Shown here: positions 36-11,754 of the stretch, piece by piece
Numbering within the stretch: position 1 is the first letter of the stretch
Layout: every line of letters starts with the position of its first letter
Source of the DNA: Candidatus Nanohaloarchaea archaeon
GTDB taxonomy: Archaea; Nanohalarchaeota; Nanosalinia; Nanosalinales; Nanosalinaceae
Reading direction: 5' to 3'
Assembly (NCBI GenBank): GCA_042217695.1
Contig: JBDGSE010000037.1
Coordinates: 1-11,754, forward strand
Length of the DNA: 11,754 nt
Made by a program: the position numbers and the translations under genes
The notes under the pieces: generated by a model
The model's database searches: none
The model's input: only the letters and a program-made list of their open reading frames with translations
What the model was told of the DNA's origin: nothing

Positions 36-55
36 TGCGAGGGCGAGGATTCGAA
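36..55 (-). repeat. 20-bp exact duplicate of the tRNA-Leu 3' end
   Basis: tgcgagggcgaggattcgaa at 36-55 is identical to 105-124. Confidence 0.95.
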
Positions 56-104
56 TGCGAAGCTGGCGCTTCTATGTTCGAATCCGGAGTAAAGCAAACC
101 TGTT

Positions 105-187
105 TGCGAGGGCGAGGATTCGAACCCCGGAACCTCTACAGGACAGCGCCCTCAACGCTGCGCCTTTGACCACTTGGCTACCCTCGC
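105..187 (-). tRNA. tRNA-Leu (anticodon GAG), CCA not encoded
   Basis: Reverse complement GCGAGGG TA GCC AAGTGGTCAAA GGC G CAGCG TTGAGGG CGCTG (long variable arm) CGGGG TTCGAAT CCTCG CCCTCGC A folds into a complete class II cloverleaf. Anticodon GAG is at 153-151. Confidence 0.95.
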
Positions 188-340
188 GAACTTCTGAAAG
201 TTCGATCATCACAAGGCATGCCGCGCATGCCTTTCAGGACCTGCCTATTGTTTTTGGAGGGTTGGCAAGCCGCTCTTGGCTACCCTCGCAATTGGTTACG
301 CTCAATTGATACGCAACAAGCCATGCTAGGCATGGCTTTC
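173..340. repeat. Degenerate tandem repeat (~102-105 bp period): tRNA 5' fragment + hairpin A + hairpin B
   Basis: Hairpin A: CGAACTT-ctga-AAGTTCG (187-204) and CAATTG-8nt-CAATTG (289-308). Hairpin B: AAGGCATGC-cgc-GCATGCCTT (213-233) and AAGCCATGC-tag-GCATGGCTT (318-338), both in an AC...TC context. Confidence 0.8.
275..289 (-). repeat. 15-bp exact duplicate of the tRNA-Leu 5' end
   Basis: cttggctaccctcgc at 275-289 is identical to 173-187. Confidence 0.9.
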
Positions 341-4846: not shown

Positions 4847-5959
4847 ATGAAACTGTACGAGCACGAGGCGAAAGACATCCTCGAGGAACACGGTATCGAT
4901 GTGCCTGGCTCCGAGGGACCCGAGTTCGTGGTGAAGGCACAGGTGCTGGCGAAGAACCGTAAGGAACAGGGAGGGATAAGGTTCGCCTCCTCGCTGGAGG
5001 AAGCCAGGGAACTTGCGGGAGAGATGCCGGAAACGATCTCGGGGAGAGAGGTGGAGGACTTCCTCATCGAGGACCGCGTCGATTTCGAGAAAGAGTTCTA
5101 TGTATCTTTCCTCTACGACACGGACACCAGGAATCCCGTGATGCTTTTCTCTTCCTCTGGTGGATCGGGAATAGAGGACCGTGAAGTGAAAAAACTGGTG
5201 CTGGAGGACGGGATGCAGTGGCGTTTCCGCGACTTCCTTTCACGGCAGGAGATAGACGACATGATCGGGCTGGGCTCCACGCTGCAGAAACTGTTCCAGG
5301 CATTCCTTGAAGAGGATGCCAGGATGCTCGAGGTAAACCCGCTGGCAAAGACCCCGGAAGGCTACGTTGTGCTCGACGCGATGATGGACCTTGACGAGGA
5401 TGCGTCCTACCGGCATTCCCGCGACCTTCCCGAGCGGTCGGACCTGGGACGCGGTAAAACGGAGAGAGAACTGGAAGCCGAAAAGATCGACGAGGACGAC
5501 CACCGGGGCGTGGCGGGCAAGTACACCGAGCTCGACGGCGATATCGGGATGATGCTTGCCGGCGGGGGAGCCTCGCTGACCAATATGGACGCCCTGATAG
5601 AGTACGGGGGAGAACCCGCGAACTATACCGAGTACGGCGGCAACCCTCCGACCGAGAAGGTCTACCGCCTGTCGAAAGTTATAATGTCGAAACCCGGTCT
5701 GAAAGGGCTGTGGCACGTCGGCGGGACCGCGAACAACACCGACATACTGCGGACGATGAAGGGATTCGTCCAGGCTCTGGAAGAGGAAAGACCCGGGTAT
5801 CCGATAGTCGTGAGGCGGGATGGGCCGCACGCGGACGAGGCCTTCGAACTTCTACGTGAGACCCGGGACGAACTCGGGTTGAACATGAAACTTTTCCGGA
5901 ACGACACGCCGATGACGCAAACCGCAGAAGTACTGATGGAGATGGTGGAACAGCAATGA
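4847..5959 (+). CDS. Citryl-CoA synthetase large subunit / ATP-citrate lyase beta-like subunit (ATP-grasp + citrate-binding domain; SucC superfamily)
   Basis: MKLYEHEAK, VVKAQV, EFYVS and LEVNPL..LDA ATP-grasp motifs. C-terminal AGGGAS..MD, ANYTEYGGNP, GGTANNTD and IVVRRDGP match the ACL citrate-binding domain rather than SucC (NGAGL, ANFLDVGG, VVRL.G). Confidence 0.85.
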   Translation: MKLYEHEAKDILEEHGIDVPGSEGPEFVVKAQVLAKNRKEQGGIRFASSLEEARELAGEMPETISGREVEDFLIEDRVDFEKEFYVSFLYDTDTRNPVMLFSSSGGSGIEDREVKKLVLEDGMQWRFRDFLSRQEIDDMIGLGSTLQKLFQAFLEEDARMLEVNPLAKTPEGYVVLDAMMDLDEDASYRHSRDLPERSDLGRGKTERELEAEKIDEDDHRGVAGKYTELDGDIGMMLAGGGASLTNMDALIEYGGEPANYTEYGGNPPTEKVYRLSKVIMSKPGLKGLWHVGGTANNTDILRTMKGFVQALEEERPGYPIVVRRDGPHADEAFELLRETRDELGLNMKLFRNDTPMTQTAEVLMEMVEQQ

Positions 5960-6027
5960 GCAGTTTGCTTGAAGTAGAAGACGTGGAAATCTCAAAGGAT
6001 AATGGACCGGGAGGTCTCGAACGATGA
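5956..6027 (+). CDS. 23-codon mini-ORF MSSLLEVEDVEISKDNGPGGLER (possible gene remnant or coupling peptide)
   Basis: ATGA overlaps at both ends (5956-5959 and 6024-6027). GGTGG SD-like motif at 5944-5948. Confidence 0.45.
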   Translation: MSSLLEVEDVEISKDNGPGGLER

Positions 6028-6629
6028 ACATACCCGTATTCGACATCGGTGATACGTTGCTCCCGTCACGAAGGATGATAAACAGGAAGGTCCATGAACA
6101 CACGGGGACGGAAAAACATTTCCCCATAGAGGAGTACAACATCTACGTCCCGGAAGAAGTGCAGAACTGGCTGGACGAGAACGGTCTCGAGGGAAACGCG
6201 GAGGAGATAACCAGGAGCTACCTGGACTGGGAGCGCTCGTTCTTCCGCGGCAACAGCGTCGTGGAAACGCTGAAAAAATGCAACCAGGAGCTGGGCACTA
6301 TCGGCTTCATCAGCGACAACTCGATAGCCGCCAAGAAGTTCTACCGGGAGCTGTTCCAGGAGCTCGGTGTCGAGTACAGGGGTTTCGTGGTCTCCGAAGA
6401 GGTCGGAGTGAAAAAGCCCTCCAGGGAGATATTCGAGGCCTTCCTGGATAAGCGGGAGAGACCCGCGGAAAAGTTCGCCTATTTCGGAAACAACCCGGAG
6501 AGAGATTCTGGCGCGGAAAAAGTCGGGATGGACTTCGTCTGGGTCGACAGGTACGACGACTTCGGTTCAGAATGGAGCGGCAAAACCATACAGGAGTTCA
6601 GCTTTGAAAAGATACAGGAGGCGGTGTAG
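6024..6629 (+). CDS. HAD-superfamily hydrolase
   Basis: FDIGDTL (motif I), ISDN (II), SEEVGVKKP (III) and FGNNPERD.GA (IV variant). SD GGAGGT at 6010-6015. Confidence 0.88.
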   Translation: MNIPVFDIGDTLLPSRRMINRKVHEHTGTEKHFPIEEYNIYVPEEVQNWLDENGLEGNAEEITRSYLDWERSFFRGNSVVETLKKCNQELGTIGFISDNSIAAKKFYRELFQELGVEYRGFVVSEEVGVKKPSREIFEAFLDKRERPAEKFAYFGNNPERDSGAEKVGMDFVWVDRYDDFGSEWSGKTIQEFSFEKIQEAV

Positions 6630-7523
6630 ATGGCCATAATAGTTGACGAAGACACGAAGGTGTTGGTACAGGGGATAACCGGGAGGGAGGCATCGGAAAA
6701 AGTCCCGGAGATGCTGGATTACGGGACCGATGTGCTGGCGGGCGTCACCCCGGGCAAGGGCGGACAGGAGGTCTCAGGCGTCCCGGTATACGATACCGTG
6801 TCGGAGGCCCTGAAGGAACACCCCAGGATAAACACCTCCCTGGTCTACGTCCCCCCCTTCGCGGCGAAGGACGCTATATTTGAATCACTGGAGAACGGTA
6901 TAGAGACCCTGAACGTCATCACCGAACGGATACCCACGAGGGATGCGTGGGAGATACACCGGGAGGCAGAGCGAAAAAACGCCACCGTCGTGGGCCCTAC
7001 CTCTGTCGGGATAATATCGCCCGGAAAATGCAAGCTGGGGCCTATAGGCGGGAACGAACCAGAGCGCGTCTACCGCGAGGGCAGGGTCGGCGTGATATCC
7101 AAGTCCGGCGGCATGACCACCGAAACGTCCTGGGTGGTGCGCCAGGCAGGCTTCGGGGTCTCAACCGCGGTCGGGCTGGGAGGCGACGTGATAGCAGGCA
7201 CAACTTTCGAGGACGCCCTTAAGATGTTTGAAGAGGACGACCAGACCGACGCGGTCGTGCTGTTCGGCGAGTTAGGCGGGACCTACGAGGAAAAAGCCGC
7301 CGAACTTCTCGACTCCGGAGATTTCTCCAAGCCACTTGTTGCGTTCGTGGCGGGGAAGTTCACCGAGGACATGCCTGAAAAGAAGTACGGCCACGCAGGA
7401 GCCATCATCCGGGGCGACAGAGGCAAACCCTCCGGCAAGGTAGAGGCTCTGAGGGATGCCGGGGCGCACGTGGCGGACGTCCACCACGAGATAGGCGAGA
7501 AGCTGAAGGAAGTGCTGGACTAA
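6630..7523 (+). CDS. Citryl-CoA synthetase small subunit (SucD-like CoA-binding/phosphohistidine subunit)
   Basis: [20 protein letters not shown]...GII.PG, SKSGG.T.E, GLGGD, GE.GG..EE and GHAGA (phospho-His). SD GGAGG at 6617-6621. ATG directly follows the HAD stop codon. Confidence 0.9.
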
Positions 7524-7560
7524 CCGGGACTATTTCAATATCTTTACCCCACTGTTCCAC

Positions 7561-8262
7561 ATGACAGACTGGAAGACCTCGATCTCTTCCTCGGGAGAAG
7601 ACGCTGTTGTACGCGGAGTCCCGCAGGAAGAGGTCATGGAGATGGATTTCGCCGACGCCATCTGGCTTTTACTGACAGGGGAGAAGCCCTCGGAGGATGA
7701 GTCAGAACTCTTCAACACCGTACTGTCATCAAGCATCGACCACGGCGTCGGGAACCCCTCGACCGTAGCATCGAGGACCGTGCAGAGCGGCGGCAACGGG
7801 ATGAACACCTCGGTCGGCGCCGGGATACTCGCGCTGGGAGACCTCCACGGCGGAGCCATCGAGGACTGCATGGCGATGCTTCAACAGGAGAAAGACCCTG
7901 AGGACATAGTCGAGGAACGGCTCGAATCCGGCGACAGGATCCCCGGGATCGGCCACAAGGTCTACGATGACGAGGATCCCCGGGCCAGGAAGATAATCGA
8001 GAAAGCGGAGGACCTGGGGCTCGATGGAGAATACACAGAAAAGATGAGGTCTGTCCGGGAAACGTTCGCGGAGGAAAAAGTCGAGCTGGTGATGAACGTG
8101 GACGGCGCAATCGCCGCGGTGATGTCAGACCTTGACTGGGACCACCGACTGGGTAAAGGCCTCTTCATAATCGCAAGGACTCCCGGACTCGTCGCGCATG
8201 TGAGAGAGGAGATGGACGAAGACCCGTTCCGGCGTGAAGACGGGGAATACACCGGAGACTAG
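7561..8262 (+). CDS. ccl: Citryl-CoA lyase (citrate-synthase-like fold)
   Basis: 233 aa, WKTSIS start, DHG..PS, LHGGA, IPGIGH..Y...DPRA, NVDGAIAA and ARTPGLVAH.REE. Too short for a full citrate synthase. Confidence 0.88.
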   Translation: MTDWKTSISSSGEDAVVRGVPQEEVMEMDFADAIWLLLTGEKPSEDESELFNTVLSSSIDHGVGNPSTVASRTVQSGGNGMNTSVGAGILALGDLHGGAIEDCMAMLQQEKDPEDIVEERLESGDRIPGIGHKVYDDEDPRARKIIEKAEDLGLDGEYTEKMRSVRETFAEEKVELVMNVDGAIAAVMSDLDWDHRLGKGLFIIARTPGLVAHVREEMDEDPFRREDGEYTGD

Positions 8263-11544: not shown

Positions 11545-11673
11545 ATTGAAAGATTTACTAATACAGGTATAAAAGGTTTACAGTCAGGCCGCAAAAAACC
11601 TCGAGAAATCCGGTTTAAACCCTCAAATCCTGGAAGAAACACCTTGCCTCTCAAGGATCAAATGCCGGGTCAA

Positions 11674-11744
11674 GCAAATCGAAGATTTGCGGCCGAAGCA
11701 CTACTTGCTTCTAAGAGCAAGTTCTGAAGAAGAGAACTTGCGGC
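11674..11744. repeat. Hairpin cluster with TTGCGGC direct repeat next to a tRNA 3' end
   Basis: GCAAATC-gaa-GATTTGC (11674-11690), GAAGCA-ctact-TGCTTC (11695-11711) and GCAAGTTCT-7nt-AGAACTTGC (11717-11741). TTGCGGC occurs at 11687 and 11738. Confidence 0.75.
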
Positions 11745-11754
11745 TGCCGGGATT
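11739..11754 (-). tRNA. 3' end of a tRNA (or tRNA-end duplicate) truncated by the window; acceptor resembles tRNA-Gly
   Basis: Reverse complement AAT CCCGG CAGCCGC A = end of T-loop, T-stem 3' strand, 7-nt acceptor 3' strand and discriminator. Identity cannot be confirmed without the anticodon. Confidence 0.6.

Follow-up and report, generated by a model that had tools for sequence, protein, structure and literature searches.

Probably mobile hairpin cassettes with duplicated tRNA gene ends in a nanohaloarchaeal genome

Results

Organization of the window and its two tRNA-associated units

The window, the whole stretch of DNA analysed here (11,754 nt), is the entire contig JBDGSE010000037.1 (C31) of a Candidatus Nanohaloarchaea archaeon assembly (GCA_042217695.1; 757 kb, 44 contigs, 83% complete). 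We refer to this genome as G000 and to its contigs by C-numbers; other G-numbers denote genomes of relatives (the handles G006/G057 and G007/G049 are the same genomes, with identical coordinates), and L-numbers denote loci. A tRNA gene lies at each end of the window, and the proteins encoded between them are metabolic and membrane proteins (lipoate ligase, citrate lyase/synthase-like, FIST, HAD, bPH_2 and others); none of the 16 window proteins scanned contains a mobile-element domain, and these genes are unrelated passengers between the two tRNAs. Rfam families other than tRNA were found neither in the window (E ≤ 1; RF00005 alone) nor at 11 related loci (gathering score), and archaeal RNase P RNA (RF00373) has no match in the 83% of the genome represented in G000. 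Within positions 4847–8262, genes for ATP-grasp/citrate-binding, CoA-binding/ligase and citrate-synthase-domain proteins adjoin the lipoate ligase gene and two FIST genes; we take these to suggest a split ATP-citrate lyase-like set, presumably unusual in a fermentative nano-archaeon.

The features at the left end of the window, with the evidence for each, are as follows.

105–187, minus strand: tRNA-Leu(GAG), intronless, the target gene of the left units (ARAGORN; Rfam RF00005, 52.5 bits)
36–55, minus strand: direct copy of tRNA-Leu positions 54–73, 20/20 identical, a target duplication with period 69 (sequence, own-end test)
56–104, minus strand: type A cassette, 49 nt, with 94% identity (46/49) to the insert behind tRNA-Leu(TAG) on contig C19 (sequence comparison)
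93–107, minus strand: first hairpin, whose outer pairs recruit the terminal GCA of tRNA-Leu(GAG) (sequence)
75–87, minus strand: inverted copy of the tRNA's own T-loop/T-stem, pairing over 9 bp with the direct copy (fold, own-end test)
58–74, no strand assigned: GAAGC/GCTTC hairpin, an AGAA...TTC module (motif search, fold)
188–236, plus strand: cassette of two hairpins, directly adjoining the 5′ end of tRNA-Leu and antisense to it (sequence comparison)
252–289, minus strand: leader unit with a direct copy of tRNA-Leu positions 1–15 (275–289) and an imperfect inverted copy (252–270) (sequence)
289–340, plus strand: variant of a 27-nt head hairpin, H (289–315), and a second hairpin (318–340), abutting the 5′-end copy on the antisense strand (pattern search, sequence comparison)

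The leader unit at 252–289 is the mirror image of the tRNA-Leu 3′ unit, and the family of the 188–236 cassette is also present in G000 behind tRNA-Gly, in the tRNA-Ser(CGA) intron and at one intergenic site. The left unit has a folding z-score of −2.8 on the tRNA strand. By eye, the 188–236 cassette does not fit a C/D-box RNA, and neither the left nor the right trailer fits a bulge-helix-bulge (BHB). Two joints in Logan contigs, 187–370 and 188–260, were considered as empty leader sites and left unused; their sides are shorter than 30 nt with a likeness of 88, and they are probably from other organisms.

The features at the right end are as follows.

11739–11754, minus strand: final 16 nt of tRNA-Glu(TTC), truncated where the contig stops (end match in relatives, synteny)
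11716–11741, minus strand: type B cassette, hairpin 1, with a GCA...TGC closure, 9 bp (fold, layout search)
11694–11713, minus strand: type B cassette, hairpin 2, an AGAA...TTC module (motif search, fold, layout search)
11688–11693, minus strand: short direct repeat (6 nt) of the end of tRNA-Glu, with period 51 (layout search)
11673–11690, minus strand: hairpin opening the next unit and capping the short copy (fold, sequence)
11659–11670, minus strand: probable inverted T-arm copy (sequence, by analogy with the type A pattern)
11585–11658, minus strand: decayed outer trailer, assigned with low confidence (fold, sequence)

The trailer extends to about 11585, and its outer part may comprise a hairpin (11642–11656), a second inverted/direct T-loop-like pair (11603–11632) and an inverted acceptor-end match (11585–11600), all with low confidence. 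Folding z-scores of the right unit are −3.5 and −4.1 on the two strands.

The contig stops at 11754, as do the Logan contigs listed, and the remainder of the right tRNA is absent from the G000 contigs. The original prediction took 11739–11754 as part of a tRNA, and we identify it as the 3′ end of tRNA-Glu(TTC) because of its end match in relatives, the Glu-Leu synteny and a bPH_2-like neighbour. This end recurs in 7 of the 41 genomes searched (8 loci), and seven of these eight loci are called tRNA-Glu by ARAGORN (five TTC and two CTC). Nineteen relatives have tRNA-Glu(TTC) and tRNA-Leu(GAG) on a single contig; in 18 of them the two share a strand and the Glu gene lies upstream, at a distance of 3.6–17.7 kb. 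In G021 the gene after Glu(TTC) begins like the bPH_2 gene of the window.

The hairpins at both loci have the letters and positions first reported for them, and the copies of the tRNA ends are likewise present at both, with period 69 on the left (20/20) and period 51 on the right (6 nt). The motif CGAAGC-N4-7-GCTTCTA occurs twice in the window and in none of 200 shuffles. With a spacing of N3-10, the window's two sites are the sole matches in the 757-kb genome. The exact motif is not what defines the family; its members have in common an AGAA...TTC hairpin immediately ahead of the end copy. The two loci were thought to have the same architecture, and this holds for the shared hairpin and not for a single type of unit, the left having a long duplication and the right a short one. 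A sequence at 11663 that had been described as a tgccggg tRNA fragment is better read as the inverted T-arm copy at 11659–11670, which has one mismatch in 12 to the expected T-arm complement.

Copies of tRNA ends in G000 and its relatives

The cassettes of G000 form a genome-wide set of hairpin units of 45–120 nt. We searched for repeats of the last 13 nt of each tRNA (at most two mismatches) within 250 nt of tRNA ends having a trailer of at least 100 nt. A repeat of the tRNA's own end is present at 14 of 29 ends, as compared with 1 of 684 for the ends of other tRNAs. Five T-arm-like anchors judged not to be tRNAs and one duplicate were left out, and the window's right end is scored as a miss; one of the five, on C40, has since come to look like a genuine tRNA whose copies are of 6 nt only, and its inclusion would give 14 of 30. 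Among 19 relatives, 3′ copies are present at 21 of 115 ends (controls, 37/11432) and 5′ copies at 10 of 120 (controls, 98/10864), in a sample of 120 regions fetched among the 150 matches listed (524 in all) that is biased to intron-less tRNAs. No end copies were seen in the sampled tRNAs of seven genomes with at least five tRNAs sampled. Thirty-one inserts from relatives match G000 at 20 places, 15 of which are within 450 nt of a tRNA T-arm, a territory of at most 4.3% of the genome.

Orthologous loci are either occupied or empty. A unit is present at the Leu(GAG) locus in 5 of 25 cases (G000 included) and the site is empty in 20 of 25; at the Glu(TTC) locus a unit is present in 5 of 27 and the site is empty in 22 of 27. 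These counts derive from 30 loci fetched of 36 Leu(GAG) matches and 30 of 38 Glu(TTC) matches. The inserts differ at orthologous loci, and the tRNA-Glu(TTC) of G001 (L149) has the same layout as the right unit, with period 58, in a different sequence. Several genera have similar layouts at orthologous loci (L149, L311–L328), which could be old copies, inherited and kept for a function.

Two layouts of direct and inverted target copies

In type A units, the order of elements is the tRNA end, a short hairpin, an inverted T-arm copy, an AGAA...TTC hairpin, and a direct copy running from positions 54–60 to 73; a mirror layout stands before tRNA 5′ ends, that at 252–289 in the window among them. 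Direct copies are 13–20 nt long in 34 units. In 31 of 35 units the direct copy ends 0–2 nt from position 73, and nine of ten 5′ copies begin 0–2 nt from +1. The inverted copy tends to track the local tRNA: when 111 ends are ranked against it, the unit's own end comes in the top quarter in 22 of 35 units, which are not independent of one another, and 13 of 35 have no own-end preference. Variant T-arms are mirrored by the inverted copy at L325, L258 and L236.

Type B units have the order tRNA end, GCA...TGC hairpin, linker, AGAA...TTC hairpin and a 6–9-nt end copy, with a period of 51–58. A search for this layout matched 10 of 378 tRNA ends, seven antisense at 5′ ends and three sense at 3′ ends, one of these three being a false positive. 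Among the controls, swapped ends matched in 26 of 721 cases and shuffles in 3 of 11340. BLAST finds no match between the left and right inserts and no significant match for the right insert; what connects the cassette types is their layout and their common modules rather than a single alignable sequence.

The GCA...TGC closure is constant in type B (9/9 true matches). It had been proposed that these hairpins sequester the terminal GCA of the tRNA. The outer pairs do form with the tRNA's GCA, whereas a sequestering function is not supported, since pairing with the own tRNA's last bases is weakly end-specific overall (26/34 duplicated trailers, as compared with 600/988 swapped ends and 52/117 unduplicated trailers). 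G71 and C72 are already paired in the tRNA acceptor stem. The closure is better read as an insertion junction, GC|A. The same GC|A junction is seen at both tRNA ends, on opposite strands, because the acceptor stem is an inverted repeat, an indication that the target is DNA rather than RNA. The boundaries at +1 and 73 would also fit an RNA template, and a loop cut with a 15–20-nt reach and selection for a whole gene would give the same.

A conserved head hairpin in several archaeal groups

The 27-nt H pattern has 38 loci in GTDB genomes, all with archaeal titles and none bacterial: 15 are titled Woesearchaeota, 10 Methanosarcinales, seven Nanobdellati/Nanoarchaeia/Nanoarchaeota, one Iainarchaeum, two Nanohaloarchaeota and three unnamed archaea. 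The Methanosarcinales label on the ten is doubtful, as one shares its insert with a Woesearchaeota record. There are 27 further loci in metagenomes and none in viral contigs. H is present in 20 of 40 relatives, and a reversed-pattern control gave 0. By eye, the 38 loci comprise 18 sense at or in tRNAs, five antisense and 15 elsewhere; the contexts include D-, anticodon- and T-loop introns, copies with a 5′ or 3′ duplication, gene starts and the interior of larger repeats.

Across 26 variants selected on loop and tail, 154 of the 156 cells of the H stem are paired, and the stem is followed by a constant tail, ACACGCA. The pairs include nine G-T and no A-C, and H therefore folds on its own strand, whatever the orientation of the tRNA. 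All six pairs covary on 22 variants, above shuffled and slid controls, in a calculation uncorrected for kinship.

H is also nested in larger multi-copy repeats, at L015, L025, L029, L036 and L037 (all in one genome) and at L021, L024, L038, L022, L026 and L035; one larger repeat containing H has apparent terminal inverted repeats. At L059, L073, L081 and L083, H is at the start of a protein gene, with 20–40 nt of the start duplicated upstream, and L014/L086 and L069 are tandem runs of the H unit alone.

The strong covariation of H could indicate that the units are leaders and trailers with a role in processing, termination or small-RNA signalling, selected and spread by gene conversion. The layout shared by the tRNA-Glu(TTC) genes of G001 and G000 despite their differing sequences would fit such a role, and three E. 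coli tRNA-linked repeats (TLRs) are processed into Hfq/CsrA-binding RNAs, as the available text of PMC8144298 describes. We nonetheless consider a purely functional origin distinctly unlikely, given the many empty orthologous loci described above and the seven genomes with no copies at any sampled tRNA; moreover, the wobble polarity follows the cassette and not the transcript, and terminator-like sites number 1 as compared with 0.5 expected.

Cassettes in introns, at protein genes and in intergenic sites

Five of the 15 G000 tRNA introns share cassette modules with tRNA flanks, a sixth match being apparently fortuitous. Between the Thr(CGT) and Lys(CTT) introns the identity is 89% across 98 nt, and both contain, reversed, a module seen behind Arg(TCG) and Leu(AAG), where by eye it has a two-hairpin layout like that of the window's right insert. 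A BHB was seen by eye in related intron copies (the C4 Ser intron and L013). The earlier proposal of an element family is supported, and the family is larger than supposed, whereas its restriction to tRNA 3′ ends is not upheld, with members also at 5′ ends on either strand, in tRNA introns and at protein-gene boundaries.

The tRNA at C4:3529–3754, called tRNA-Arg(TCT) by ARAGORN, is by eye a tRNA-Ser(CGA) with a BHB intron, and this intron holds the same cassette in both orientations.

Cassettes at protein-gene boundaries are accompanied by a 15-nt duplication in an intergenic gap (C15) and by a 13-nt duplication at a gene start (C12, with an 8-nt microhomology at the junction); these show that a tRNA is not required. 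Upstream of an elongation-factor-like gene, C32:4990–5150 contains a 79-nt tandem duplication that includes a cassette module.

An alternative explanation is that half-spliced pre-tRNAs (5′ exon plus intron, or intron plus 3′ exon) are reverse-transcribed and recombined beside the tRNA gene. The duplications extend between non-canonical intron sites and the mature ends (from T-loop to position 73, or from +1 to D-loop), and H is found as D-, anticodon- and T-loop introns, both of which such a route would explain; the enzymes EndA and RtcB are also at hand, in 5/5 genomes. We regard an RNA route as unlikely, in view of the antisense copies (the seven type B matches, and by eye 5/23 tRNA-linked H loci), the intergenic and gene-start copies, the lack of a reverse transcriptase match (RVT_1) in 5/5 genomes, and copies of G73-ending tRNAs that have no added CCA.

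The trailer of tRNA-Leu(CAA) (C28:11299–11460 and C17:1546–1380) has a 22-nt copy of the tRNA-Leu(AAG) end, and its two modules are in the opposite order to those of the Leu(AAG) trailer. This swap fits a circular intermediate, recombination between loci or mis-assembly.

The duplications could also have arisen by local replication slippage and quasi-palindrome template switching, with the cassettes spread only through recombination between tRNA loci and DNA uptake, in which case no mobility machinery would be involved. The direct-inverted-direct layout, the Leu(AAG) end with swapped modules at Leu(CAA) and the microhomology at C12 are consistent with this. It would have to accommodate both the constant GC|A junction and an identical 26-nt head at unrelated targets in genomes titled Woesearchaeota, Iainarchaeum and Nanohaloarchaea, and we consider it improbable.

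Searches for mobility enzymes

Nine families of mobility enzyme have no match in G000 at its 83% completeness (Y1, GIY-YIG, tyrosine integrase, reverse transcriptase, Cas1, IS110, TnpB, HNH and DDE_Tnp_1), and none of the nine is common to the five carrier genomes tested. Integrases match in 3/5, Cas1 in 1/5 and DDE_Tnp_1 in 1/5; IS110, TnpB and HNH, like RVT_1, match in 0/5. LAGLIDADG proteins match in 3/5 genomes, the G000 match being in a 656-aa frame. Y1 transposases have no match in the 29 nanohaloarchaeal genomes and match in 11/54 genomes overall, all outside Nanohaloarchaeota and IS200-like; H is nearby at one of 12 Y1 loci, and that H is inside a tRNA D-loop intron. GIY-YIG proteins are encoded in 17/64 genomes, none of them G000, many in UvrC-sized frames, and H was found at 0/13 short GIY-YIG loci. 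In a single case, L119 (G054), a small GIY-YIG gene adjoins a tRNA whose end is duplicated and which has a hairpin insert.

The integrase matches raise the question of whether the units are attL/attR scars of tyrosine-integrase elements whose cargo has been lost, and a T-loop crossover with replacement of the 3′ end is a classic pattern for such elements (PMC3293823, in its available text). We consider this the least probable of the alternatives: there is no fixed attP because one cassette carries many different tRNA ends, there are 5′ and antisense copies, G000 itself has no integrase match, and the cassettes have no matches in viral, phage or plasmid collections.

Discussion

A proposed mechanism

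Related cassettes are found at unrelated sites, on one strand or the other, and at orthologous sites they are either present or absent. They have 6–20-nt target copies, their stems stay paired, and some make up parts of tRNA introns. We conclude that they are very probably a mobile family, with target duplication, strand symmetry and modules shared with introns, and that both window units belong to it.

We lean somewhat towards a mechanism of DNA-level insertion of non-autonomous cassettes, with target duplication, fold-back copying and splicing-aided survival in genes. The tRNA gene, while transiently folded, would be nicked in its D, anticodon or T loop or else at GC|A, on the acceptor stem's 3′ edge, and a folded single-stranded cassette would be joined there; the nicking or joining enzyme would act in trans. 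Host fill-in synthesis would duplicate the target, and fold-back template switching could write an inverted copy of the nearby target into the cassette stem. Insertions that restore the gene would persist as leaders or trailers, and can be envisaged to stack; loop insertions without duplication would survive only as a BHB that EndA and RtcB could splice.

A broader view, which we hold tentatively and as possible rather than probable, is that these are minimal mobile elements with neither terminal inverted repeats nor a gene of their own, in which a host or unrecognised single-strand enzyme targets folded tRNA genes on either strand and copies the target into stems; they would cross archaeal phyla and, in DPANN archaea, directly give rise to new tRNA introns.

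Relation to known elements

By description, the closest analogue would be the E. coli TLRs, located downstream of tRNA and rRNA genes in 1–5 copies per locus, with a function stated to be largely unknown and with a last 18–19 bp identical to the 3′ end of the upstream gene (PMC8144298, available text). The left unit, with its 20/20 own-end copy, and the 34 units with copies of 13–20 nt resemble these, the right unit less so with merely 6 nt. TLRs are confined to positions downstream of tRNA and rRNA genes, whereas the cassettes also occur at 5′ ends, antisense, in introns and at protein genes; the size of the cassettes (45–120 nt), their inverted target copy and a head common to several archaeal groups further set them apart, again by description.

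Both window units sit outside the tRNA, unlike transposed BHB introns. The transposed tRNA introns of Thermoproteales were reportedly described by Fujishima et al. in 2010. In Thermoproteales, near-identical introns occur in different tRNA isotypes by a mechanism stated to be unknown and presumed to act at the DNA level (PMC4090602; bioRxiv 10.64898/2026.10.13.758758; available text of both). A comparable case in G000 is that of the Thr(CGT) and Lys(CTT) introns, with 89% identity over 98 nt, but here the donor modules also occur beyond the tRNA bodies, accompanied by target duplications, of which the available parts of those accounts contain no report.

A short hairpin with a constant unpaired tail, stacked mosaics and single-strand folding with G-T pairs are reminiscent of REP/BIME elements, CGTC-tagged palindromes and the Ssn-related motifs (SRM) associated with GIY-YIG nucleases (PMC3733652 and PMC11893778, as far as their available text goes). 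The tail of H is ACACGCA, however, and not GTAG or CGTC, the target duplications are long, and H flanks neither a Y1 (RAYT) gene nor a small GIY-YIG (Ssn) gene. As a candidate CGTC/SRM repeat, H was rejected by eye for its mismatch to the published SRM consensus.

Casposons generate a duplication of about 15 bp at the tRNA 3′ end beside the T-loop, with only 5 bp of tRNA overlap, and have terminal inverted repeats and Cas1 (PMC5137440, available text). The cassettes differ in having inserts below 200 nt, no terminal inverted repeats, no Cas1 in G000 (1/5 genomes) and a duplicated stretch that is the tRNA end itself. MITEs are small, non-coding, non-autonomous and folded, and are flanked by direct repeats (PMC3184786, available text). 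The cassettes are likewise small, folded and non-coding with a target site duplication, but they have an inverted segment derived from the target in place of terminal inverted repeats, the mean best terminal match being 4.1/10 in 34 inserts as compared with 4.3 in shuffled sequences. No description of these cassettes was found in the largely open-access literature searched, nor in the available text of PMC3293823, PMC4390854, PMC10266531 and bioRxiv 10.64898/2026.05.13.725050.

Implications

How archaeal tRNA introns are gained was stated to be unknown in a 2014 review (PMC4090602) and is still treated as open in a 2026 preprint (bioRxiv 10.64898/2026.10.13.758758), in the available text of each. 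The cassettes offer a handle on how such introns arise: because the modules seen as introns also exist as free insertions, with duplicated targets and with orthologous sites that are empty, the donor, target and junction become identifiable and open to testing. An enzyme search could take the direct-inverted-direct footprint and the GC|A junction as concrete substrates. The cassettes also mislead tRNA annotation, with false anticodon calls and false ends observed, and they probably help to break assemblies at tRNAs; many G000 contigs end in a tRNA.
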